The notes below the pieces were generated by a model. It was not told the DNA's origin. It searched no databases and saw only the letters and a program-made list of their open reading frames with translations. From positions 192,001 through 256,000 of the forward strand of contig CAWHFW010000004.1 of the NCBI GenBank assembly GCA_963828735.1: a DNA stretch of 64,000 nt, read 5' to 3'. Position 1 is the first letter of the stretch, and each line of letters starts with the position of its first letter. Shown in pieces: positions 14,965 to 48,904 of this stretch. The translations under genes were made by a program, and so were the position numbers. The stretch is from an uncultured Gemmatimonadales bacterium (GTDB lineage: Bacteria > Gemmatimonadota > Gemmatimonadetes > Gemmatimonadales > GWC2-71-9).

Positions 14965-16305
14965 CTACACCACCCCGATGACGACATCCATCACGTTCGT
15001 CCCCGTCAGCCCCACTCTCAGCAGGGCTCCCGCCGCGTCCAGCGCCCGGTAGGCGTCGTGCGCCGCCAGGTCCCGCTCGGGATCCCGACCCGAGGTCGCC
15101 GCGGCGCGCCAGGTGCCGCCGTCCACGATCGCACCCGCAGCGTCGGTCGGACCGTCGCGACCGTCGGTGCCGGCGGCCATGAGCGCCACGCCCGATCGCG
15201 CGCCGTCCAGCGCCCGGGCCGCCGAGAGTGCCAGCTCCTGGCACCGCCCGCCGAGTCCAGGAGAAGCGTCGCCCAAGGTCACGGTCGTCTCACCGCCCCA
15301 GATGAAGCAGCGGCTCGGCGCGACTGGTTGCGGGATGTTCCGGGGACCGCAATGTTGTAGCAGAAGAGCGGCTACACTCGCGCCTGTCGCCCATGCCTCC
15401 CCGGCGAGCGGCGTCTCAGCCACCTCGGGCGCGAGGCCCAACTCAGCCGCCCGTCTGGCCGCAGCTTCGACGGCCAGTCTGTTACTGGCGATCACTTCGA
15501 GGGTCACGCGCGCGAAGGCCTGATCTCCGGGCTTTGGCGTTTCGGCTGTTTCCCCCGATTCCGACGCCAGCAGGAGCCGTTGGGCGGCCGCCGGAATACG
15601 GGTCCAGAGCCCGGCCTGCTCGAGTTGGCGGTGGACTTCCGCCGCGGTGGTGGGGTCGGGGACGCAGGGGCCGGAGCCGATCGAAGCGAGGTCGTCGCCG
15701 ATGACGTCGGAGACGACGAACACCCGTACCCGCGCCGGCGCGAGCGCCGCGGCGAGCCGTCCGCCGCCCCAGCGCGAAAAGCGCTTGCGGATCCGGTTCA
15801 TGGCGGTGATATCGAGGCCGGATCCGAGGAGGAGACCGTACAACGCGGTCAGCTCCGCCGGCGCGAGTCCGGGGACCGGCGCCGCGAGCAGGCTCGAGGC
15901 GCCGCCGGAGAGCAGCACCCAGACCTCGTCCGGCGACCCGACCCGACTGGTCGCCTGCGCCAATGCTTCCGCCGCGGCGAGCGAGCCCGGCCCGGGCTCG
16001 GGATGATCCCCGCGGATCGTGCGGATGCCGGGATGCGGTGTTGCCTCCGCCGCGGGGGCGACGAGGAGTCCGCCTGCCGGCTCCTGACCCCACGCGCCGA
16101 GGGTCTCGACGGCGGCGCGGGCCATCGGGCCAGCCGCCTTCCCGAGCGCGAAGATCCAGGGGGAGGCAGGGGTGCGGTCGAGGAGGCTCAGCCTCGCCGA
16201 GAGCGCCGGGCCGGGATCAACCGCCCGGGTGGCAACCGTGTAGAGCTCGGTGAGGAGCTCCCGTGGGGACAAATCCGAGTGGGAACGAGCGGCGGACGCG
16301 GGCAA
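14965..16305 (-). CDS. gck: Glycerate 2-kinase (class II, DUF4147/MOFRL)
   Basis: ALGKAA, LLSGGASSL, SDVIGDDLASIGSGP, GGETTV, GGRCQE, GTDGRDGPT and TGTNVMD motifs. Confidence 0.9.
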   Translation of the reverse strand: MPASAARSHSDLSPRELLTELYTVATRAVDPGPALSARLSLLDRTPASPWIFALGKAAGPMARAAVETLGAWGQEPAGGLLVAPAAEATPHPGIRTIRGDHPEPGPGSLAAAEALAQATSRVGSPDEVWVLLSGGASSLLAAPVPGLAPAELTALYGLLLGSGLDITAMNRIRKRFSRWGGGRLAAALAPARVRVFVVSDVIGDDLASIGSGPCVPDPTTAAEVHRQLEQAGLWTRIPAAAQRLLLASESGETAETPKPGDQAFARVTLEVIASNRLAVEAAARRAAELGLAPEVAETPLAGEAWATGASVAALLLQHCGPRNIPQPVAPSRCFIWGGETTVTLGDASPGLGGRCQELALSAARALDGARSGVALMAAGTDGRDGPTDAAGAIVDGGTWRAAATSGRDPERDLAAHDAYRALDAAGALLRVGLTGTNVMDVVIGVV

Positions 16306-16315
16306 GATCGCAGCC

Positions 16316-16368
16316 TTGTGAAAAAAAGCACAAAGTGCTATACATGGGCTGACGCATAAAAATTCAGC
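16316..16368 (+). promoter_or_regulatory. AT-rich divergent gck/sgaA promoter region with two dyads
   Basis: TTGTGA-N17-TATACA with extended -10 TG; AGCAC-AAA-GTGCT (16327-16339) and GCTGA-N11-TCAGC (16348-16368). Confidence 0.5.
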
Positions 16369-16461
16369 GGGCAGTATGAGCTTCAGCGCCTGCTAATGTA
16401 CTCTGATCAGGCGGGGGCGTCGCGCCTCCGCCGGGGCTTCCTTCCTCCTGAGGGCTCGCGC

Positions 16462-17724
16462 ATGGCCGGCCGCAACTTCCTCCTCGTTCCGGGGCCTACG
16501 AACACGCCCGACCGTATCCTCCGCGCCATGCATGTCGCGATGGAGGACCACCGGTCGTCCGACTTCCCCAAGCTCGCCGCCCCGGTGCTCGAGAACCTGA
16601 AGAAGATCTTCAAGACGTCGACGGGGCAGCCCTACATTTTCCCCGCCAGCGGCACGGGCGCGTGGGAGGCGTCGCTGTCGAACACGCTGAGCCCCGGCGA
16701 CCGCGTCCTCGCGGCCCGGTTCGGCATGTTCAGCCACCTCTGGATCGACATGGCCCAGCGGCTGGGCCTCAAGGTGGACGTGCTCGACACCGAGTGGGGC
16801 GAGGGCGCCCCGGTCGAGCGGTATCACGAGGCGCTCGCCGCCGACAAGAACCACGAGATCAAGGCCGTACTGTTCACCCACAACGAGACGGCCACCGGAG
16901 TCACCAGCGACGTGGCCGGGATGCGCAAGGCGCTCGACGACGCGAAGCATCCCGCGCTCCTCATGGTGGACGGCGTGAGCTCGATCGCGAGCATCGACTT
17001 CCGGATGGACGAGTGGGGCGTCGACTGCGCCGTCACCGGTTCCCAGAAGGGCCTAATGCTTCCGGCCGGCCTCGGCATCGTGTGCGTGAGCCAGAAGGCT
17101 GCGGCGCAGTACGAGAAGGCCAGGCTGCCGCGGGTCTTCTTCGATTTCGGCGACATGAAGAAGGCGAACGCGACGGGGTACTTCCCGTACACGCCGTCGC
17201 TTCCGATGCTGTACGGCCTCCGCGAGTCGCTCGCGGTCCTGTTCGAGGAAGGGCTCGAGAACGTCTTCGCCCGGCATCACCGGCTCGCCGAGGGCACCCG
17301 TGCCGCCGTGAAGGCCTGGGGGCTCGAGCTCTGCGCCCGCGAGCCGCGGTGGCACTCGGACACGGTGAGCGCGATCATGGTGCCGCCCGGCATCAACGGC
17401 GCCGAGGTCATCGACGTGGCCTACCGCCGCTACAATCTGGCGCTCGGCGCGGGTCTCGCGCGGATGGCGGGGCGGCTCTTCCGCATCGGCCACCTCGGCG
17501 ATTTGAACGAGTGCATGCTCCTCGGCGGCCTCGCCGGCGCGGAGATGGCGATGCGCGACGTGGGCATCAAGGTGACGCCCGGGAGCGGGGTGGCCGCGGC
17601 CGAGGAATACTGGCGCGGCACGGCGAAGCCGCTCGAGCAGCGGGAGCTTCCGCCGCGCGCCCCCGATGCCCAGCCCGCGGCCCCGACGGCGAAGGAGAAG
17701 GCGACCGCCGGCGTCGCTCGATGA
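16462..17724 (+). CDS. sgaA: Serine--glyoxylate aminotransferase (class V PLP)
   Basis: GRNFLLVPGPTN.PDRILRAM...EDHRS, SGTGAWE, HNETATGV, GSQKGLMLPAG and GYFPYTP, strongly resembling methylotroph SgaA; serine-cycle context. Confidence 0.9.
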   Translation: MAGRNFLLVPGPTNTPDRILRAMHVAMEDHRSSDFPKLAAPVLENLKKIFKTSTGQPYIFPASGTGAWEASLSNTLSPGDRVLAARFGMFSHLWIDMAQRLGLKVDVLDTEWGEGAPVERYHEALAADKNHEIKAVLFTHNETATGVTSDVAGMRKALDDAKHPALLMVDGVSSIASIDFRMDEWGVDCAVTGSQKGLMLPAGLGIVCVSQKAAAQYEKARLPRVFFDFGDMKKANATGYFPYTPSLPMLYGLRESLAVLFEEGLENVFARHHRLAEGTRAAVKAWGLELCAREPRWHSDTVSAIMVPPGINGAEVIDVAYRRYNLALGAGLARMAGRLFRIGHLGDLNECMLLGGLAGAEMAMRDVGIKVTPGSGVAAAEEYWRGTAKPLEQRELPPRAPDAQPAAPTAKEKATAGVAR

Positions 17725-18659
17725 GCCACACCCGCGTCGAGCCCGCCCGTCAGCGGCTGCAGCGCAGCGAGCTGGCCGTGCCCGGATCGAGTCCGGGCAT
17801 GTTCGCGAAGGCGCTCGACAGCGCCGCCGACTACATCTTCCTCGATCTCGAGGACGCGGTGGCGCCGGGGGACAAGGAGTCCGCGCGGACCAACGTGATC
17901 CGCGCGCTGCAGGAGCACGAGTGGCGCGGTCGCGGCAAGACGATCTCGGTGCGGATCAACGGCATCGACACCCACTACATGTATCGCGACGTGGTGGACG
18001 TCGTGGAGCAGGCCGGCCATCGGCTCGACACGATCCTGATTCCCAAGGTGGGCGTTCCCGCGGACGTCTACCTCGTGGACGCGCTGCTGACGCAGATCGA
18101 GCAGGCGAAGGGCATCCCCCACCGCATCGGCATCGACGTGTTGATCGAGACCGCGCTCGGCATGGCCAACGTCGAGGCGATCGCGCAGTCCAGCCGGCGG
18201 CTCGAGGCCATGCACTTCGGGGTCGCCGACTACTCGGCGAGCTGTCGCGCGCGCACCGTGGTGATCGGCGGCCTCAACCCCGACTACCCGGGTGATCAGT
18301 GGCACGCCGCGCTCTCGCGGATGATCGTCGCCTGCCGCGCCTACGGCCTTCGCCCCATTGACGGGCCCTTCGGCGACTTCAAGGATCCGGATGGCTATCG
18401 GCTCGCCGCGAAGCGCGCCGCGGCGCTCGGCATCGAGGGAAAGTGGGCCATCCATCCCTCGCAGATCGCGCTGGCCAACGAGGTGTTCAGCCCTCCGCCG
18501 GCCGAGGTGGATCGGGCGAAACGCATCCTGGTCGCGCTCGACGAGGCCGCGCGGGACGGGCGCGGCGCGGCGCAGCTCGACGGGCGGATGATCGACGCCG
18601 CCTCCGCGCGGATGGCGCAGAACATCGTTCACATGCACGAGGCCATCGAGAAGGCCTGA
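17721..18659 (+). CDS. mcl: Malyl-CoA lyase (CitE family)
   Basis: [50 protein letters not shown] and GKWAIHPSQ typical of Mcl; ATGA overlap with sgaA. Confidence 0.9.
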
Positions 18660-18693
18660 CCGCGACTCCGACCCACGACTCGAGATCGCCACC

Positions 18694-19887
18694 ATGGACA
18701 TCCACGAATACCAGGCCAAGGAGCTGCTCGCAGGTTTCGGCGTGGCCATCCCGCGTGGCGGGGTGGCCTACAGTCCGGAACAGGCGGTCTACCGCGCGTC
18801 GGAGATCGGCGGCACTCGCTGGGCCGTGAAGGCGCAGATCCATTCGGGCGCCCGCGGCAAGGCGGGCGGGATCAAGCTCTGCTCCAACGAGGACGAGGTC
18901 CGGCAGGCCGCGAAGGGCCTGCTCGGCAAGCGACTGGTGACCCACCAGACCGGTCCCGAGGGTCGCACGGTCCACCGTCTCTACGTCGAGGCGGCGGTGC
19001 CGATCGACCGCGAGATCTATCTGGGGTTCGTGCTGGACCGGAAGAGCGAGCGGGTGATGATCGTCGCCTCGGCGCAGGGCGGGATGGAGATCGAGGAGAT
19101 CTCCGAGCGCTCGCCGGACGCGATCATCCGCTCGGTGGTCGAGCCTGCGGTGGGCCTCACCGCCTTCCAGGCGCGGGAGATCGCCTTCGCCCTCGGCCTC
19201 GATTCCGCCCAGGTGACCCGCGCCGTGACCACCTTGCTCGGCTGCTACCGGGCGTTCCGCGACCTCGACGCGACCATGGTGGAGATCAACCCGCTCGTGG
19301 CCACGACGGACGGCCAGCTCTTCGCGCTCGACTGCAAGATGACGTTCGACGACAACGCGCTGTTCCGGCGGCCGAACGTGAGCGAGCTGCGCGACTACGC
19401 CGAGGAGGATCCGCGGGAGTCCCAGGCCGCCGAGTACGGGATCAATTACGTCGCGCTCGACGGCGAGATCGGCTGCATCGTGAACGGCGCGGGCCTCGCG
19501 ATGGGCACGATGGACCTGATCAAGCACGCCGGCAGCTCGCCGGCCAACTTCCTCGACGTAGGCGGCGGCGCCTCGCCGGAGAAGGTGTGCAATGCCTTTC
19601 GTCTGGTGCTCGCGGATCCGAAGGTCAAGGCGATCCTCGTGAACATCTTCGCCGGGATCAACCGCTGCGACTGGGTGGCCCAGGGCGTGGTCTATGCCGT
19701 GAAGGAGCTCAAGCCCGCCGTGCCCCTGGTGGTGCGGCTCGCGGGCACGAACGTCGAGGAGGGCCGCAAGATCCTGAAGGACAGCGGCCTCGACCTGGTC
19801 ACCGCGGATACCCTTACCGAGGCGGCCGAGAAGGTCGTCGCCGCCCTCAAGGCCTCGGGCAGCACGGCCGGAAACGGAAAGCCATGA
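18694..19887 (+). CDS. mtkA: Malate--CoA ligase (malate thiokinase) large subunit
   Basis: SucC-family fold with MtkA-type [12 protein letters not shown]...AYSPEQAVY and [13 protein letters not shown] (SucC typically NIFGGIVRCD); lies between mcl and ppc. Confidence 0.88.
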
Positions 19888-20795
19888 GCATCCTGATCGA
19901 CGAACGGACGCGCGTGATCATCCAGGGCTTCACGGGCGACAAGGGCTCCTTCCACGGCAAGGAGATGGCCGCGTACGGCACCAACCTGGTGGGCGGCGTC
20001 ACGCCAGGGAAGGGCGGCAAGCGGCACCTCGACCGGCCGGTCTTCAACACCGTCAAGGAAGCGGTCCGCGAGGCCGGCGCCGAGGCGACCATCATCTTCG
20101 TACCGGCCGCGTTCTGCGCGGACTCGATCATGGAAGCGGCCGACGCCGGCGTCCGGCTGATCTGCGCCATCACCGACGGGATCCCGGCGCAGGACATGAT
20201 GATGGTGAAGCGGTATCTGTGGCGATATCCCAAGGAGAGGCGCTCGACGGCGATCGGCCCCAACTGCGCCGGCATCATCAGTCCGGGCAAGGCCATGCTC
20301 GGCATCATGCCGGGCCACATCTACAAGCGCGGCACGGTGGGTCTGGTGACGCGATCCGGCACGCTGGGCTACGAGGCCGCGTCGCAGATGAAGGCGGTCG
20401 GTATCGGCATCTCGACCAGCGTCGGCATCGGCGGCGATCCGATCAACGGCAGCTCGTTCGTGGACATCCTGCAGCGCTTCGAGGAGGATCCCGAGACCGA
20501 GGCCGTCATGATGATCGGGGAGATCGGCGGCCCCCAGGAGGCGGAGGCAGCCCGGTTCGCGAAGGCGAACATGAAGAAGCCGGTCATCGGGTACGTGGCC
20601 GGCCTGACCGCGCCGAAGGGCCGCCGCATGGGACACGCGGGCGCCATCATCCGCGCCTTCGGGGAGAGCGCGGCCGAGAAGGTGGAGATCATGAAGGAGG
20701 CGGGGCTCACGGTGGTCCACAGCCCGGCCGACCTCGGCGCCACGACCGCGACGGTGCTGGGCGGGCTGTCCAAGCGCGTGGCGGTCGCGACGTGA
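19884..20795 (+). CDS. mtkB: Malate--CoA ligase small subunit
   Basis: SucD family; [26 protein letters not shown] and RMGHAGA (phospho-His). Confidence 0.88.
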
Positions 20796-21766
20796 GCGGG
20801 CGGCCGGTGATCGTCGTGACCCGCCGGCTGCCGGAGCCGGTGCACCAGGCGCTCACGCGCGAGTTCGACGCGCGGCTCAACGAGGACGACCGCCCGCTCT
20901 CGTCCGACGGCCTCCGCGACGCGCTCGCCACCGCCGACGCCCTGCTCACCACGGTGACGGACAAGGTGACCGAAGAGGTGCTCGCCGTGGAGCCGCGGCG
21001 CGCCAAGCTGGTGGCCAACTTCGGCGTGGGCTTCAACAACATCGACGTCGAGGCCGCGAAGGCCCGAGGCGTCGCCGTCTCGAATACGCCCGACGTCCTG
21101 ACGGATGCCACGGCGGACCTCGCCATGACCCTTCTGCTCATGGTGGCGCGCCGCACGGGGGAAGGCGAGCGCCACCTGCGGGGCGGGCAGTGGACCGGCT
21201 GGCGTCCGACCCACATGCTCGGGACCCAGGTGACCGGGAAGACGCTGGGCCTCGTCGGCATGGGGCGGATCGCGCGCGCGGTGGCGCAGCGCGCCCACCA
21301 CGGCTTCAAAATGAAAGTGATCTATCACGATCCGTTTCCGCCGCCGGCCGACGTGGCCAGCGCCCTCGGCGCCGAGCCGCGCGAGACGCTGGACGACGTG
21401 CTGCGCGAGGCGGACTTCGTCTCGCTCCATTGCCCGGCGCTACCGGAGACGCGGCACCTGATGAACCGGGATCGACTTGCCCGCATGCAGCCGCACGCGT
21501 TCCTCGTGAACACCGCCCGCGGCGACGTGGTGGACGAGGCCGCCCTGGTCGAAGCGCTCGCGTCGAAGCGGATCGCGGGCGCGGGCCTCGACGTGTACGA
21601 ACGCGAGCCGCAGGTGACGCAGGCGCTCACGACCATGGACAACGTCGTGCTCCTCCCCCACCTCGGCAGCGCCACCACCGAAACGCGCGTGGCGATGGGC
21701 ATGCGCGCCGTCGAGAACCTCCAGCTCTTCTTCAGCGGCAAGCCCCTCCGCGATCGCGTCGTGTGA
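20792..21766 (+). CDS. D-2-hydroxyacid dehydrogenase, hydroxypyruvate/glyoxylate reductase
   Basis: NTPDVLTDATAD, GLVGMGRIA, NTARGDVVDE, GLDVYE.EP and LPHLGSAT motifs; GTGA overlap with mtkB. Confidence 0.88.
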   Translation: MSGRPVIVVTRRLPEPVHQALTREFDARLNEDDRPLSSDGLRDALATADALLTTVTDKVTEEVLAVEPRRAKLVANFGVGFNNIDVEAAKARGVAVSNTPDVLTDATADLAMTLLLMVARRTGEGERHLRGGQWTGWRPTHMLGTQVTGKTLGLVGMGRIARAVAQRAHHGFKMKVIYHDPFPPPADVASALGAEPRETLDDVLREADFVSLHCPALPETRHLMNRDRLARMQPHAFLVNTARGDVVDEAALVEALASKRIAGAGLDVYEREPQVTQALTTMDNVVLLPHLGSATTETRVAMGMRAVENLQLFFSGKPLRDRVV

Positions 21767-24534
21767 CCCCGGTGGTGCTCGAGCCGTTCGTCGCCGGGAT
21801 CGAGCTGCCCGAGTCGCCCGACCCGGTAGCGGCGAGCGCCGCGCACTATGCCAACGGGGTCGTTGACCTCCTGAGCGATTTGATGCTGCGACTGGTCCGG
21901 CAGCGCGCGCCCGACGTCGAGCCGGTGCTGCGGGGTCAGAAGGCGCCACACGAGCTGAGCGCCGAGCTGCTGGCCCGGACGCTCCAGGTGCAGGGAATCT
22001 GGTTCCAGCTCCTGAGCATCGCCGAGCAGAACGCGGCCATGCGGCGCCGCCGGCAGACCGAGGCCGAGCGCGGCTACGAGCTGGTCCGCGGGACGTTTGC
22101 GCAGGTCTTCTCGTCCGCGGTCGAGGCCAAGGTGCCGGCGGCCGACATTCGAGGGCTGCTCGAACGGCTCCGGGTCCGGCCGGTCATCACCGCGCATCCC
22201 ACCGAAGCCAAGCGCGTCACCGTCCTGGAGAAGCACCGGCGCATCTACCGCCGCCTCGTGGATCTCGAGTCCCCGCGCTGGACGCCGCGCGAGCGCCAAT
22301 CGCTGATCGACGGGCTCCGGAACGAAATCGAGCTGCTGTGGCTCACGGGAGAGCTGCGCCTCTCGAAGCCGACCGTGCCGCAGGAAGTGTTCTGGGGCCT
22401 GCACTTCTTCAACGAGACGTTGTTCGAGGCGGTGCCGGACCTGCTCGACAAGGTCGAGCGCACGCTGGCCCAGCACTATCCCGACGAGCGCTGGGTGGTC
22501 CCGCCGTTCTTCCAGTTCGGCTCCTGGATCGGCGGCGACCGCGACGGCAATCCCTTCGTCACCAACGACGTCACGCAGAGCACTCTGCTCGAGAACCGGC
22601 TCACGTCGCTCCGGCGATACCGGCGTCGGATCGATGAGCTGGTGCGCGCGCTCAGCATCACGGAGAAGGCCGTCCCGATCTCCGACCGGTTTCGGCGGGC
22701 TCTCGAGAAGGAGCTGGCCGAGACCGGGCGCGCGGAGGAGGTCGCGGCGCGGAATCCCGGGGAGGTCTTCCGGCAGTACCTGGGCTGCATGCTGGGCCGG
22801 ATCCAGGTCATGATCGAGCGGACGGAGCAGGGCTCCACCAAGCCCGACCCGGCCGGCTACGCCACGGCAGACGCCTTGCTCGCGGACCTCAAGCTGCTCG
22901 AGGACGAGCTGGGCCTTGCCGGCCGGCCCGAGATCGCACGGGCGCTGCTCACGCCGGTGCGACGCGAAGTGGAGTCGTTCCGGTTCAGCACCGTGCGGCT
23001 CGACGTGCGCGAGAACACAACCAAGCTGGGCGCCGCCCTGCGCGATCTCTGGCGGCTCGCTAACGGCGGCGACCCGCCCGAGGCCGGCTCCGAGGCGTGG
23101 CGGGCCTGGGTCGCCGCGGAGCTGGCGCGTCCGCTGGCTCCCGGCGCTCTCGCGCCGGCGCTCCCCGAAGCGACCGCGGAGACGCTAGGCATGTTTCAGC
23201 TCGTGCGACGGCTCCGCGACGAGATCGACCGTGAGGCCTTCGGCGCCTTCGTGCTCAGCATGACACAGAGCGTGAGCGACGTGCTCGGCGCGTACCTGCT
23301 GGCGAAGGTCAGTGGGTTGTTCGCCGACGCGCCCGGCGTGGAGAGCTGCACCCTGCCCATCGTGCCCCTGTTCGAGACGATCGACGATCTGCAGCGCGCT
23401 CCGACCATCATGCGAGACCTGCTGACGGTGCCATTGGTCAAGCGGAGCGTGCGGGCCCAGGGCGGCGTGCAAGAGGTGATGATCGGCTACTCCGACTCGA
23501 ACAAGGACGGCGGGTTCCTCACCTCGAACTGGGAGCTGTACAAGGCGCAGACCAAGCTGACCCGGGTCGGGAAGGAGTGCGGCGTGCCGATCGCCTTCTT
23601 CCACGGGCGGGGCGGCTCGGTGAGTCGCGGCGGCGCGCCGACGGGGCGCGCGATCGCGGCCCAGCCTGCGGGCTCGATCCGGGGACGCATGCGGATCACC
23701 GAGCAGGGCGAGGTGGTCTCGTTCAAGTACGCCAACCGCGGCACCGCCCAGTATCAGATCGAGCTGTTGGCCTCGAGCGTCGTCGAACATTCGCTCAAGT
23801 CCGAGCGGGAAGAGGCCCTCGCCCCCACGGCGGAATTCGACGAGGCGATGGAGGCCTTGAGCGGCGCGGCTCAGGCGGCGTATCGGCGCCTGGTGGACCA
23901 CCCCGATCTCCTGCCGTATTACCAGTCGGCGAGCCCGCTCGAAGAGATCTCGCTCCTCAATCTCGGCTCACGCCCCGCGAGGCGCTTCGGCGCGCGCTCC
24001 CTGGGTGATCTCCGCGCGATCCCCTGGGTGTTCGCCTGGTCCCAGAATCGCCACTTCGTGCCGGGATGGTACGGGGTCGGGAGCGGCATCCTCACGTTTC
24101 TGCAGGTGCGCGGGCAACGGGGCGCCGCGCTGATCCAGCGCATGTCCACCGAGTCGCGGCTGTTTCGTTTGATCGCGGATGAGGTCGAGAAGACGCTGTG
24201 CTACGTGGATCTCGAAACAGCCAGGGAGTACGCCGCGCTGGTGCCGGACGAGCGCGCGCGCGACGCGATCTTCCCGATGATCGAGGAGGAGTACCATCGG
24301 ACCGTCGAGGCGGTGCTTCGGATCAGCGGCGGTCCGGAGCTGGCGCACCGGTTTCCCCGCTTCCGTCGCAAGCTGGCCCGACGTCTCCCGACCCTGAACC
24401 AGATCTCCCGGCAGCAGATCGAGCTGCTCCGGCGCTTCCGGGAAACGGGCGGGGACACGTCCCAGGAGGAACTGCTCTCGGCGCTACTCCTGTCCATCAA
24501 CTGCATCGCGGCGGGGTTCGGGGCGACAGGGTAA
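21763..24534 (+). CDS. ppc: Phosphoenolpyruvate carboxylase
   Basis: ITAHPTE, GSWIGGDRDGNPFV, QEVMIGYSDSNKDGG, FHGRGGSVSRGG and LRAIPWVFAWSQNR motifs. Confidence 0.97.
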   Translation: MTPVVLEPFVAGIELPESPDPVAASAAHYANGVVDLLSDLMLRLVRQRAPDVEPVLRGQKAPHELSAELLARTLQVQGIWFQLLSIAEQNAAMRRRRQTEAERGYELVRGTFAQVFSSAVEAKVPAADIRGLLERLRVRPVITAHPTEAKRVTVLEKHRRIYRRLVDLESPRWTPRERQSLIDGLRNEIELLWLTGELRLSKPTVPQEVFWGLHFFNETLFEAVPDLLDKVERTLAQHYPDERWVVPPFFQFGSWIGGDRDGNPFVTNDVTQSTLLENRLTSLRRYRRRIDELVRALSITEKAVPISDRFRRALEKELAETGRAEEVAARNPGEVFRQYLGCMLGRIQVMIERTEQGSTKPDPAGYATADALLADLKLLEDELGLAGRPEIARALLTPVRREVESFRFSTVRLDVRENTTKLGAALRDLWRLANGGDPPEAGSEAWRAWVAAELARPLAPGALAPALPEATAETLGMFQLVRRLRDEIDREAFGAFVLSMTQSVSDVLGAYLLAKVSGLFADAPGVESCTLPIVPLFETIDDLQRAPTIMRDLLTVPLVKRSVRAQGGVQEVMIGYSDSNKDGGFLTSNWELYKAQTKLTRVGKECGVPIAFFHGRGGSVSRGGAPTGRAIAAQPAGSIRGRMRITEQGEVVSFKYANRGTAQYQIELLASSVVEHSLKSEREEALAPTAEFDEAMEALSGAAQAAYRRLVDHPDLLPYYQSASPLEEISLLNLGSRPARRFGARSLGDLRAIPWVFAWSQNRHFVPGWYGVGSGILTFLQVRGQRGAALIQRMSTESRLFRLIADEVEKTLCYVDLETAREYAALVPDERARDAIFPMIEEEYHRTVEAVLRISGGPELAHRFPRFRRKLARRLPTLNQISRQQIELLRRFRETGGDTSQEELLSALLLSINCIAAGFGATG

Positions 24535-24566
24535 GACGGCGGAACCGCTGGGGCCAGCCTCAACGA

Positions 24567-24599
24567 GAAGGGGCCATGCGTGCGACGCATGGCCCCTTC
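24567..24599. terminator. Hairpin between convergent ppc and rlmN (probably bidirectional terminator)
   Basis: Perfect 15-bp inverted repeat GAAGGGGCCATGCGT-GCG-ACGCATGGCCCCTTC. Confidence 0.75.
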
Positions 24600-42194: not shown

Positions 42195-43246
42195 ATGGAT
42201 CCCGACCTCCTGCTCGCGGGCCTGCAGGCCGGCAATACTGCGGCCTTGGCCCGCGCGATCTCGGTGGTCGAGAACCGGCGTCCCGGGTTCGAGCGCCTGC
42301 TGGCCGACGTCCACCGGTTCATCGGGCGGGCCCGCCGCATCGGAATCACCGGCCCGCCCGGCGCGGGCAAGTCCACACTCGTCGAACGCATGGTAGCCGC
42401 CTACCGGCACGTTGGATTGCGGGTGGCGGTCGTGGCCGTCGATCCTACCAGCCCCTTCACCGGCGGCGCGCTGCTTGGCGACCGCATCCGCATGGAATCC
42501 GTGGCGCTCGACCAGGGGGTCTACATCCGGTCGATGGGAAGCCGCGGGTCCCTCGGCGGTCTGGCCACCACCACGCGCGAGGTGTGTGACCTGCTTGATG
42601 CCGCGGGTTTCGAGCGCATCCTGATCGAAACCGTCGGCGTCGGACAGAGCGAGCTCGACGTCGCGCGCATGGCCGATACCACGGTCCTCGTCCTCGTGCC
42701 CGAGTCGGGCGACGGCATCCAGACCCTCAAGTCCGGGGTGATGGAGATCGCCGACCTGTTCGTCGTGAACAAGGCGGACCGCCCCGGAGCGGAGAAGCTG
42801 CGCCAGGAAATCGAAGTCACGCTCGGCATCCGCCGCGGCAACGCGTTCCGGAACGTGCCGGCGCATCACGGTCGAGCAGTCGGACGGCCGGGCAAGCGCG
42901 CCGGGGATGCGGGCGCCGCGGACCAGGTGACCGCGCCGCCGTCCTGGGATCAACCGGTGGTCCTCAGCGTGGCGGCCAAGGGTGAGGGCGTGGGGGAGCT
43001 GATCGGCGCCCTCGACCGGCACTCCGCGTGGCTCGCCGAGAGCGGCACGCTCGAGGGGCGCCGCCGCCGGCGTCTGCTCGATCGGACCCGCGAGGTGGTG
43101 GACCGGGCCACGCGGCGCTGGCTGTGGGAAGAGACTCGCGCCGACGAGCGCATCAACGAACGGCTGGACGAGATCGTGGCCGGGCGCGTCAGTCCCTACG
43201 AGGTGGCGGCGGAAGTGCTGGACGGGCTCAAGCAGGGAGAGCGGAT

Positions 43247-43250
<4 letters not shown>
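42195..43250 (+). CDS. meaB: B12 mutase chaperone GTPase MeaB
   Basis: [41 protein letters not shown] and NKAD motifs. Confidence 0.95.
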
Positions 43251-44959
<1,709 letters not shown>

Positions 44960-46164
44960 CGGCCGACGCACGGCCGCCAGGGCAGGAAACGGACGGGGAC
45001 GCACCCGGACGGCGGTGCCGGCGGTCGCGGAGCGCCTCGCGCGGCTGACCGGTGTGGCCCCGGCACCGCATCGCGTGGTCACCTGCTACCTCAAGCTCGA
45101 GCCTCGGGATCGGAGCCGTGGGAAGTATCTCATCAAGCTCAAGAACCGCGCGCGCGAGGTCGCCCAGGCGCTGCCGCGGCTCGGCCTCGAGCGGCCGGTC
45201 TACGAGGAGGTCGTGCGCGACCTCGAGCGGGTGCAGCAGTACCTGCGGACGCCGGCCAATCTCCCGTCCACCCAGGGGCTCGCGATCTTCGCCTGCGAGG
45301 CGCTCGGCCTGTTCGAGGCGCTCCCGCTGCCCGTGGTCTACCGGTCCCGCCTCGCGGTGGACTCCACGCCGCTCGTGCGCGAGCTCGCCTCCGTGGACGA
45401 CGAGTTCGGACGCCTCCTCACGGTCGTCCTCGACCGCATGGGCGCCCGGTTCTTCGAGGTCACCGCGTACGACTGCCACGAGCTCTCGGGCCTCCGCGCC
45501 GACAGCACCCGAGGCCGTCGCTTTCGCGGCGATCAGAACGGCCCGGGCTGGGGCGAGCATACCTACAACAACCGCATCCGCACCGAGAAGCAGCGGCACT
45601 ACGAGGCCATCGCGCGGGAGCTGTTCGTCATCGATCGCCGGCAGCCGGCGCACGGCATCGTGATCGCGGGGACCGGGACGGATGCGGGCGCGGTCGAGCC
45701 GTTCCTGCACAACTATCTCGCCGAGCGGGTCCTGGGGACGGCGCGGCTCAACCCGAAGGAGGCGACGCCGGCGGCGGTGCACGCGGCCACGCTGGCCGTT
45801 CGCGAGGCCTGGGAGCGCGAGAGCGAGCGCGCACAGGTCGAGGAGATGCAGGAATCGCTCGGCGGCGGTTGGAGCGTGAACGGGCTCGACGCGACCCTGC
45901 GCGCGCTCTCGCGCGGGCAGGTGCGGACGCTCCTCGTTCACGCCGACGCCAGCGAGCCGGGTTTCCGCTGCGGGTCGTCGGGTCGCCTGGCGCGCACCGA
46001 GCGGGAATGCCGGGACGAGGGCGAGCCGGTGCCCGTGCTCGACGTCGTGGACGACGCCATCGAGGAGGCGCTGCGCCAGGGTGTGGACGTGAACGTCGTC
46101 TATGACACCGAGGCGCGGACCGCCGTGGACGGGCTGGCCGGACTGCTCCGGTTCCGTTGATCGC

Positions 46165-46862
46165 GTGATCGAACTCCACGCGCCGCTTCGGGCGGTCCTG
46201 TTCGACGCCGGCAACACCCTCCTGTTTCTCGACTACGCGCGGATGGCGTCGGCGGTGGGCGCCGCGCTCGGCCTTCCGCTCACCGGCGGCGGGCTCGCGG
46301 CCGGCGCGCCGGCCGCCGCGCGCGCCATGGAGGGCTCGCGAGGGACCGACCGCGAGCGGGCCACGGTGTATCTGGAGACGCTGTTCCTCGAGGCCGGGGT
46401 CCCGCCGGCCGACATGCCCGACGTGCGCGAGCAGCTCGCGACGCTGCACGGCGAGCGTCACTTGTGGAGCGGGATCGCGGACGACGCGCACGAGGCGCTC
46501 GGCCGGCTGCGCCGCGCGGGACTGCGCCTGGGTATCGTGTCGAACAGCGATGGACGGGTGGACGAGGCGCTCGTGGCGGCGGGCCTCAGGCCGTACTTCG
46601 AGGTCGTGGTCGATTCCACCCTCGCGGGGGTGGAAAAGCCCGATCCCGCTATCTTCCGGGCCGCGCTGGACGTTCTGGAGGTGGCGCCGGAACAGGCCCT
46701 CTACGTCGGCGACCTGTACGAGGTGGACGTCATCGGCGCCAACGCCGCGGGCATCCCCGCCGTCCTGCTCGTGCCACCGGGCGCCCCCCGGCCGCAGGGC
46801 TGCGCGACCACCGGCTCGCTTCGGACGCTGGCCGACGATCTGCTCAAGGAGACACCCGCCTC

Positions 46863-46866
<4 letters not shown>
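46165..46866 (+). CDS. HAD-superfamily hydrolase
   Basis: [20 protein letters not shown] and YVGD..EVDVIGA motifs. Confidence 0.92.
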
Positions 46867-47284
<418 letters not shown>

Positions 47285-47288
<4 letters not shown>

Positions 47289-48904
47289 GCCGCCTGCGGG
47301 CGCTCACCGACGAGTACCGGCAGCTCGCCGAGCGGCTGCGTGCCGGCGGCGGCCCGGCGCGCGTCGCCAAGATGCACCAGCAGGGCAAGCTCGCGCCGCG
47401 CGAGCGGGTCGCGAAGCTGCTGGATCCCGAGGGACCCTGGCTCGAGCTCGGCCTGCTCGTCGCGTACGACCAGTACGACGGCCAGGCGCCCGGCGCCGGC
47501 GTGATCACCGGCGTCGGGGTGGTGGAGGGACGGGAGGTGGTGGTCGTGGCGAACGATGCCACGGTGAAGGCGGGCTCCTGGTGGCCCGAGACCATCCGCA
47601 AGATTCTCCGCGCGCAGGAAGTCGCCATGCGGCAGCGGATCCCCATCATCTATCTCGTGGACAGCGCCGGCGTGAATCTGCCGTACCAGGGTGGGGTGTT
47701 CCCCGGGCAGTACGGCGCCGCGCGAATCTTCTATTACAACTCGATCATGCGACGCTACCTCCACGTCCCGCAGATCAGCGCGGTCATGGGCAGCTGCATC
47801 GCCGGCGGCGCGTACCTGCCGGCGTTGTCCGACGTGATCTTCATGGTCGAGGGCACGACGTTCATGGGTCTGGGCGGCCCCAACCTCGTGAAGGGCGCCA
47901 CCGGACAGACCATCGACGCGGAGAGTCTGGGCGGCGCCGTGACGCACACCGAAGTGAGCGCGGTGGCTCACTACCGCGCCGCGAACGATGCCGACTGCCT
48001 CGGGCGGATCCGCGAGTACGTGACCCGGCTGCCACGGGTCCACGGCGTCCGGCATCGCCTCCGCCCCCCTGCCGCGCCCAGCCGTCCGGCCGAGTCGCTC
48101 TATGACGCGCTCCCGGCGGACCACCGCCTGTCCTACGACATGCGGCACGTGCTCGATGCGCTGCTCGACGATGGCGCGCTCGACGAGTTCCAGCCCGGCG
48201 TGGCGCGCGAGATGATCTGCGGACACGCGCACATCGAGGGCTGGCCGGTGGCCGTGATCGCGAACCAGCGCGGGGTCATCAAGGGGCGCCCCGACGAGCG
48301 GCCGCGGTTCGGCGGCATCGTCTATACCGGAAGCGCGGAGAAGGTCGCCTACTTCATCGAGACCGCCAACCGCGAGCACCTGCCGATCCTGTTCGTCCAG
48401 GACGTGAGCGGGTTCATGGTCGGCCCCGAGGCGGAGCACAGCGGCATCATCCGGGCCGGCGCGCACTTCGTCGAGGCCATGGCCACGGCAGCGGTGCCGA
48501 AGCTCGTGCTCACCGTCAATCACGCGTCGGGGGCGGGCTACTATGCGATGGCGGGCCAGGGCTTCGACCCGGACTTCATCCTGTCCTGGCCCACCGGCCG
48601 CATGGGGGTGATGGAGGGCGAAAGCGCGGTCATGGCGGTCCACGGACCGGAGATCGAGCGCGCCCAGCGCGAGCGCCGTGAGCTCGCCCCCGAGGTCAAG
48701 ACGTCGGTCGAGTCCATGCGCGCCGACTACGAGGCGCAGCTCGATGCCCGGTACGCGGCCGCCCGCGGCTACGTGGACGCTATCCTCACGCCCGAAGAGA
48801 CCCGCGATCAGCTCGCGTTCACGCTCCGCATCGTCGCCAACTACGCCGGGCCGCACCTCGGCCCATTCGTGCTCCCGCCGCTCGACGCGGCCTCCTCCAC
48901 GTAG
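47285..48904 (+). CDS. Acyl-CoA carboxylase carboxyltransferase (beta) subunit, MCC/geranyl-CoA-like
   Basis: [43 protein letters not shown] and GAGYYAMAG motifs. Confidence 0.92.

Follow-up and report, generated by a model that had tools for sequence, protein, structure and literature searches.

The gene cluster

The window analysed here is a stretch of 64,000 nucleotides, positions 192001-256000 of contig C4, from the 4.78-Mb genome of an uncultured Gemmatimonadales bacterium (97.5% complete, 5.17% contaminated). It contains a compact cluster of seven genes which, judged by model scores and sequence identities, encodes dedicated enzymes of the serine cycle of one-carbon (C1) assimilation. 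The serine cycle gives net carbon only when acetyl-CoA is converted back to glyoxylate. It is important to consider the cluster together with a second locus of the genome, which encodes a divergent isocitrate lyase (ICL) with RTCGH in its loop in place of KKCGH; the cycle is likely closed by this putative lyase. The operon is real, its pathway is already known for the phylum, and on its own it is ordinary. What goes beyond the known pathway is the divergent RTCGH lyase and a Rex-type box common to the operon and the lyase. The features of the cluster are the following.

14965-16305, minus strand: gck, glycerate 2-kinase of the MOFRL/DUF4147 type; TTG start, start codon uncertain
16316-16333, no strand: predicted palindrome resembling a Rex operator, between the divergent gck and sga; 14 positions, 2 of them mismatched
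16462-17724, plus strand: sga, predicted serine-glyoxylate aminotransferase; class V aminotransferase
17721-18659, plus strand: mcl, malyl-CoA lyase; closest PDB entry 5ugr
18694-19887, plus strand: mtkA, malate thiokinase beta subunit; NF010647 over cut-off
19884-20795, plus strand: mtkB, malate thiokinase alpha subunit; SucD-family models
20792-21766, plus strand: hpr, predicted hydroxypyruvate reductase of glyoxylate-reductase type; cluster orthologues
21763-24534, plus strand: ppc, phosphoenolpyruvate carboxylase; Pfam PEPcase 823 bits
24567-24599, no strand: 15-bp hairpin between ppc and the convergent rlmN, without a U tract

All seven reading frames are intact at these positions. The layout proposed in a sequence-only reading of the window, with gck divergent from sga-mcl-mtkA-mtkB-hpr-ppc, is correct in frames and order, and so are the overlaps it described at four of the five plus-strand junctions. 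These overlaps are 4 bases long (ATGA, ATGA, GTGA and GTGA), and mcl and mtkA are separated by a gap of 34 bases. The frequency of such overlaps exceeds the genome-wide background, 534 of 3051 same-strand neighbour pairs in our own gene calls, which is evidence of an operon and of nothing beyond. The hairpin, with stem arms at 24567-24581 and 24585-24599 and a 3-base loop, was also described correctly. It is followed by a U tract on neither strand and is not among the sites of a terminator scan, and it is therefore regarded as a hairpin between convergent genes and not as a shown terminator. A sigma-70 scan gave no site at the cluster promoter.

Identity of the cluster enzymes

MtkA scores 700.9 on the malate-CoA ligase model NF010647 (cut-off 604) and lower on the SucC models. 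A separate sucCD locus is present in the genome; MtkA is 45% identical to its SucC and MtkB 51% to its SucD. In a tree of 25 rows MtkA joins the proteins of Methylobacterium, Paraburkholderia, Aminobacter and Paracoccus and lies apart from both SucC rows. The Gemmatimonadales and the Methylobacterium/Paraburkholderia branches are not resolved in this tree, so no direction of transfer is claimed. MtkB is 67-73% identical to the proteobacterial cluster genes. For Mcl the best PDB match is the malyl-CoA lyase 5ugr (E 1.7e-124), against E 1e-32 or weaker for CitE-like entries. Its score on the CitE model is 167, less than the cut-off of 443, and its identity to the Aminobacter cluster gene is 75%. 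Ppc is the single tblastn match and the only copy found in the genome, with the catalytic motifs present.

Sga scores 622.5 on the BhcA model, under its cut-off of 650. Its best plasmid match is a Paraburkholderia serine-cluster gene (71%), and the listed BhcA genes are 55-60% identical. The genomic context fits the role of Sga, and serine-glyoxylate aminotransferase is the predicted function. Hpr scores best on the glyoxylate-reductase/GhrB models, yet under their cut-offs. It is 56% identical to the Aminobacter and 51% to the Paracoccus cluster reductase, and 33-34% to HprA of Methylobacterium and Paraburkholderia. Gck has the Pfam domains DUF4147 and MOFRL, scores under the cut-off on glycerate 2-kinase models and is 37-39% identical to the Aminobacter and Paracoccus cluster genes. 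The third-position GC of gck is 0.83, compared with 0.90-0.94 in the other six genes, and gck diverges faster among relatives.

The sequence-only reading had taken these for serine-cycle-specific enzymes, with a reductase of the GhrB/glyoxylate-reductase type, and had raised the question of a ligase that groups with SucCD and is the only copy. Its assignments agree with the present scores: MtkA is over its cut-off and grouped with other MtkA proteins, sucCD is separate, Mcl is closest to malyl-CoA lyase, and the GhrB-type models score best for the reductase even below their cut-offs. The lyase that would regenerate glyoxylate and the Rex-type box were not part of that reading.

Distribution and insertion site

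The named homologues and the best 80 genome loci of one gene of the source genome belong to Gemmatimonadales/Gemmatimonadota, as had been suspected from the letters of the window. In base composition the cluster does not stand out from the genome (61st percentile). Two other stretches have outlying composition, C2:about 20000-43000 (96th percentile) and C1:about 178000-190000 (93rd percentile). Among their genes are a second folD, serA, gat genes and some that resemble nitrile hydratase; to the eye these stretches have an actinobacterial look, and they may have been joined to the assembly as contaminants.

Of 24 further genomes of the genus, 21 gave MtkA, and the three that did not are 58-76% complete; it was found in none of the 16 genomes of other families sampled with them. 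When 161 genomes were drawn evenly from the phylum, MtkA was present in 30, representing 12 genera of two families. The order sga-mcl-mtkA-mtkB-hpr is retained in 20/20 relatives' loci, with ppc next in 18 and divergent gck ahead in 14. In two loci (L084 and L085, of genomes G143 and G113) the operon stops at hpr and no ppc or gck occurs within 20 kb; in G143 it comes after ilv/leu-like genes.

Twelve loci of four genera share one site, from the LytR_C gene to rlmN, with both flanks visible in 11, and the remaining loci occupy other genomic sites. The LytR_C gene is directly beside rlmN, leaving an empty site, in three of the four non-carriers examined, which bears out the earlier proposal that the cluster is inserted among housekeeping genes. 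The fourth, G165, has at this site no more than hpr and a divergent gck (L102:7197-9484), after which the synteny with rlmN is lost; this pair is a possible remnant of the operon. A fifth non-carrier gave no panC match.

The earlier observation that the gene order differs from that of Methylobacterium is correct. However, the order is not distinctive, because sga-mcl-mtkA-mtkB-hpr-gck is found on plasmid pAA01 of Aminobacter aminovorans (NZ_CP015006) and the core order is thus not new. The reductase type (56%) and the MOFRL-type kinase are also shared with this plasmid. On pAA01, gck comes after hpr in the same orientation and ppc lies outside the cluster, while here gck is divergent and ppc is last. 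In Methylobacterium (M. bullatum, NZ_LR743510) the Sga, MtkAB, Ppc and Mcl proteins are 60-72% identical to those described here, but the order is sga-hpr-...-mtkAB-ppc-mcl, the Hpr is of another type (34%) and glyoxylate is supplied by the ethylmalonyl-CoA pathway. The absence of mtdA and fch, also remarked on before, is true of the cluster and not of the genome, in which FolD, an enzyme of the MtdA family and an Fch-like protein with FTCD_C are encoded at other loci.

Predicted oxidation of methanol and entry into folate

A 30-kb island of the genome contains genes for XoxF, XoxJ, a cytochrome c, Fae, an MtdA-family dehydrogenase, Mch, Fhc subunits and cofactor synthesis. XoxF carries the lanthanide-type D-Y-D motif and has 4mae as its best match, and its gene adjoins xoxJ and the cytochrome c gene. 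The products of fae, mch and fhcA/C/D exceed their cut-offs. PqqB, PqqC and PqqE are present (PqqC and PqqE over the cut-off), as are two formate dehydrogenase loci. For the folate route FtfL and GlyA are over the cut-off; FolD, the MtdA-family and Fch-like proteins and enolase are present. The genes for C1 oxidation and for loading of tetrahydrofolate (THF), on which the sequence-only reading had made assimilation of methylene-THF depend, are thus found in the genome.

Co-occurrence was counted over 77 genomes of the phylum draw, namely all 30 with MtkA and 47 of the 131 without it. This set is biased to the host family and to ICL-positive genomes, and the kin genomes in it are not independent. 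Mch is found in 27/30 carriers and 3/47 non-carriers, and an XoxF orthologue in 26/30 and 4/47, respectively. The pairing of MtkA with Mch and XoxF recurs across different insertion sites.

The presence of XoxF, the tetrahydromethanopterin (H4MPT) pathway, FtfL, FolD and GlyA in one genome suggests that methanol is likely the C1 source. Among methanol, methylamines, formate and methoxy groups, all of which had been allowed before, methanol is the best supported in the searches made here, which covered the genes for methanol oxidation, the H4MPT pathway and formate. A search for pmoA/amoA gave no match, but its control gave no signal anywhere; a motif scan was blank as well.

Five further pyrroloquinoline quinone (PQQ) alcohol dehydrogenase genes are present (L013, L015, L016, L017 and L018), two of which, L013 and L015, have cytochrome c genes as neighbours and D-x-D at the lanthanide position. 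The formate dehydrogenase alpha subunit at C5:23127-24401 (L126, L131) has an in-frame TGA at the active site, which is likely selenocysteine, and is followed by a NuoF-like subunit and fdhD.

In four soil RNA runs, sga, mcl, mtkA, hpr, ppc and also the lyase gene are covered by short contigs of near-identical strains. They were not used as evidence of expression, since the flanking genes are covered too and contigs cannot show strand or level. Ten soil RNA runs contained no more than 0.10 of the cluster's words.

The putative RTCGH isocitrate lyase

The single ICL-family locus of the genome is C5:56015-57127, away from the serine-cycle operon, and encodes 370 amino acid residues; comparison with its homologues places the start some 9 codons further upstream. 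Its best PDB matches are all isocitrate lyases, and many of its homologues are labelled 'isocitrate lyase' by JGI. All 16 aligned copies keep the residues corresponding to AceA Y89, S91, G92, W93, D108, D157, E159, H184, E186, C195, H197, R232, D234, W287, E289, N317, S319, F349 and T351. Compared with E. coli AceA (b4015; NF011645, TIGR01346), which has 434 residues and the loop KKCGH, the RTCGH lyase has an identity of ~30%, lies outside an aceBA operon and has a Rex-type box upstream; shared are the metal ligands, the catalytic Cys/His and the residues on the succinate and glyoxylate sides. In the alignment to AceA and PrpB it also retains the lyase-type residues W/F/T. PrpB has F/L/P, and the RTCGH protein has neither this triad nor the loop KRCGH. 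The F and T at the AceA 349/351 positions are lyase-type residues according to PMC11982470.

The loop is RTCGH and not KKCGH in 120/120 listed homologues and in 16/16 aligned genome copies, and these proteins form their own long-stemmed clade in trees. When 1.8 billion representatives were searched with a profile, only two full-length sequences, a stand-alone protein and a fusion, exceeded 450 bits, together with partials; the other full-length sequences reach at most 183 bits. In the phylum draw the lyase occurs in 20 of 161 genomes, all 20 of them MtkA carriers, from six related genera. The loop residues were checked in 16 of these 20 and in 5 of the 7 genomes with a canonical-type match. 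The family was not found in the literature searched, from which subscription journals were outside; the sole occurrence of the string 'RTCGH' was in a paper on a virus, which is unrelated.

The fusion to malate synthase A is the strongest argument for the predicted lyase function. In 50/50 long homologues (P0121-P0170, about 890 residues) the domain stands behind malate synthase A, reads ERTCGH and is 57-63% identical. The fusions that carry a taxon name are from Elusimicrobiota. They have the Euglena order, synthase first, and are not among the fusions listed in PMC1630690 (Euglena, nematodes, Anaeromyxobacter). No Euglena-like sequence occurred with the Elusimicrobiota fusion in the homologue searches, and a link to the Euglena enzyme was not found.

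It might be supposed that the serine cycle is real but that the RTCGH protein acts on another substrate, 2-methylisocitrate or a different substrate of C-C lyases, and that the cycle only co-assimilates C1 units with glyoxylate or glycine from elsewhere. The loop, unlike both KKCGH and KRCGH, the low identity to AceA (about 30%) with the long stem, and the location of the gene apart from aceB and from the operon would suit this explanation. The malate synthase fusions, the W/F/T residues of the lyase type instead of the PrpB-type F/L/P, the PDB matches and the lack of a second ICL-family locus in the genome all speak for isocitrate, and we consider another substrate unlikely.

Other routes for the return of glyoxylate were also considered. 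The best Ccr score in the genome is 114.5 bits against a cut-off of 378.55, in a search whose control was over the cut-off in 1 of 14 genomes; ecm and mcd were not searched. Malate synthase was not found in the source genome. Motif matches for malate synthase and Ccr were false, the proteins being a beta-propeller protein and a generic reductase.

The lack of malate synthase leads to a different explanation of the operon itself. Mcl and MtkAB running in reverse could substitute for malate synthase beside the lyase during growth on acetate or fatty acids, with Sga, Hpr and Gck making glycerate from glyoxylate and methanol serving as energy source only. The source genome and three relatives indeed have the lyase without malate synthase, Rex control would suit general redox balancing, and the same window holds, by motif and inspection, meaB, a gene resembling a carboxyl transferase and split genes for methylmalonyl-CoA mutase (42195-48904). 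However, malate synthase is kept in 16 of the 20 RTCGH genomes, where reversed Mcl and Mtk would be redundant; the operon tracks Mch and XoxF over several insertion sites, and Ppc is co-encoded as in methylotroph clusters. This explanation is also improbable.

Rex-type boxes

The Rex operator consensus of Streptomyces avermitilis is the 18-bp sequence TTGTGAA-N4-TTCACAA, and in Streptomyces atp, nuo and rex are proven targets, which are released by rising NADH (PMC5355995). The same palindrome, matching this Streptomyces-derived consensus, precedes both sga and the RTCGH lyase gene. The gck/sga box is the only match in the window, and none appeared in 100 shuffles. The whole genome has 3 perfect sites, 1 with one mismatch and 4 with two, while five block shuffles of the genome together yielded four two-mismatch sites and none that was closer. 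Six of the eight sites precede rex, the RTCGH lyase gene, a plastocyanin-like gene, atpA, atpZ/B and gck/sga; of the other two, one falls within a gene and the second is not near any gene start. The identity of the rex gene is confirmed, and the box is at its own promoter. A nuoA-like gene, recognised by eye, has a three-mismatch site ahead.

Outside the operon the predicted Rex regulon thus has sites at C4:31381, C5:55882, C5:253896, C2:940056, C5:989580 and C1:57672 and comprises rex, the lyase, the plastocyanin-like gene, both atp operons and, weakly, the nuoA-like gene. This resembles the S. avermitilis regulon of PMC5355995 in that the 18-bp consensus stands ahead of rex and atp and, weakly, of nuo; what is added here is the serine-cycle operon and the lyase.

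Among the best 30 of 44 genus loci, the source genome included, the box before sga is perfect in 9 and has two mismatches in 17, while stretches of equal length inside sga never have fewer than four. Before the lyase gene it has at most one mismatch in 76/76 loci (4 of 80 were dropped for short flanks). The same holds for 6 of 7 loci of other genera, though the divergent neighbour gene varies. None of 11 canonical ICL genes has a box with at most two mismatches, a weak control since many such genes lie behind aceB, with a promoter farther upstream.

These boxes allow us to predict that the gck/sga operon and the lyase are repressed by Rex until NADH/NAD+ rises. Several features of the boxes speak against such control. 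The box before sga has two mismatches in the source genome itself and four in 4 of the 30 genus loci, and it was found in 0 of 14 loci outside the genus. No sites with at most three mismatches occur in the xox/H4MPT stretches scanned. The TGTGA-N6-TCACA core could also be recognised by a protein of the CRP/FNR family. Of the whole mechanism, gating by Rex is the less certain step. Rex control of the serine cycle was not found in the serine-cycle literature covered, in which no search paired Rex with Gemmatimonadota or with the serine cycle.

Proposed pathway

From the genes, families, co-occurrence and DNA boxes observed, we infer the following activities and direction of flux. Methanol would be oxidised by the lanthanide-type XoxF, and formaldehyde would be converted to formate on H4MPT by Fae, Mtd, Mch and Fhc. 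Formate would either yield NADH through formate dehydrogenase or be loaded onto folate by FtfL, after which FolD, or the MtdA-family and Fch-like proteins, would reduce the folate-bound C1 unit to methylene-THF. GlyA would join this unit to glycine, and Sga, Hpr, Gck, enolase and Ppc would lead to oxaloacetate with fixation of one CO2. Mdh, MtkAB and Mcl would then give glyoxylate and acetyl-CoA. In this icl+ variant acetyl-CoA would be carried by way of citrate to isocitrate, from which the lyase would return a second glyoxylate and leave succinate for biomass. Oxidation of methanol and formate would raise NADH and thereby lift Rex repression from the NADH-consuming cycle and the isocitrate-diverting lyase.

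Several findings have to be set against this pathway. Mdh, aconitase and citrate synthase have motif-level evidence at most. The fhcB and fhcA genes are split across frames in the assembly (C5:2284979-2287900, L027); these splits, and those of the lyase gene in G151 and G154, are probably assembly indels. Two MtkA carriers have neither Mch nor XoxF. FtfL was dropped as a marker, because it is near-universal (70 of 77 genomes) and not diagnostic. The RTCGH lyase is below all NCBIfam cut-offs (167.4 versus 562; 166.5 versus 275.9) and differs from AceA by K193R, K194T and D187N, and loop lysines matter for isocitrate lyase catalysis. Among the other 10 MtkA carriers, 7 have a canonical-type ICL match and 3 have no ICL match. 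The six related genera probably reflect one acquisition, so that 20 of 20 does not represent 20 independent cases. Malate synthase, unlinked to the lyase, in 16 of the 20 RTCGH genomes means that the lyase may serve growth on acetate and need not be dedicated to C1 units. Finally, the sequence P0231, a fusion of malate synthase, AceA and hemerythrin of 1110 residues, reads RTCGH although its lyase part has lost several active-site residues. It was set aside as a candidate link between the Elusimicrobiota fusion and the Euglena enzyme, being of the AceA lineage with a hemerythrin domain, but it indicates that an RT loop can arise in a decaying copy.

A reading in which the ligase is another succinyl-CoA synthetase and the cluster was put together by chance or from contaminant DNA is very improbable: MtkA and MtkB do pass the SucC/SucD cut-offs as well, and the assembly has 5.17% contamination and foreign-looking stretches, but the core order in 20/20 relatives' loci and the MtkA tree already contradict it, as do the higher score on the malate-CoA ligase model, the separate sucCD and the typical composition of the cluster.

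Taken with these points, assimilation of methanol by a serine cycle closed by the RTCGH lyase is the explanation that we regard as probable. A broader proposal is that this widespread Gemmatimonadales clade consists of full serine-cycle methylotrophs with an undescribed RTCGH lyase family, shared almost only with the Elusimicrobiota fusion, and that operon and lyase were recruited into the Rex regulon of the genus, so that methanol-derived NADH directly gates C1 assimilation. This proposal is tentative, and its chance of being right in full may be somewhat short of even.

Comparison with known systems and significance

Aminobacter aminovorans, whose cluster has the same core order, is a classical icl+ methylotroph, and QscR is the serine-cycle regulator of Methylobacterium. 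The original paper on 'Ca. Methylotropicum kingii' reportedly lists a serine cycle. This organism is a Gemmatimonadota methanotroph (PMC11102522). For Gemmatimonadetes, XoxF, the H4MPT pathway and a canonical malate-mediated serine pathway were presented by Butterfield et al. 2016 (PMC5103831, Fig. 4), and most XoxF genomes of PMC10875860, Gemmatimonadetes among them, have a serine pathway. In Paracoccus aminophilus aceA is induced together with hpr and gck during methylotrophic growth (PMC4543880). The soil Gemmatimonadetes metagenome-assembled genomes of PMC5103831 share with the present genome XoxF, formaldehyde oxidation on H4MPT, folate-linked entry and the malate serine pathway; gene order, lyase clade and regulator are not described in the text portion of that paper.

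Annotation by cut-offs would describe this genome as one without glyoxylate regeneration, a gap which the putative RTCGH lyase would fill. If this is true, catalysis by a lyase lacking both loop lysines would be of enzymological interest. The compact and predicted Rex-gated operon of non-proteobacterial serine-cycle enzymes is also a source of parts for synthetic methylotrophy. In a grassland soil proteome Gemmatimonadetes XoxF was the most abundant protein (PMC5103831). With an enzyme so abundant, whether these bacteria grow on the carbon of methanol or merely burn it bears on the flux of methanol in soil.

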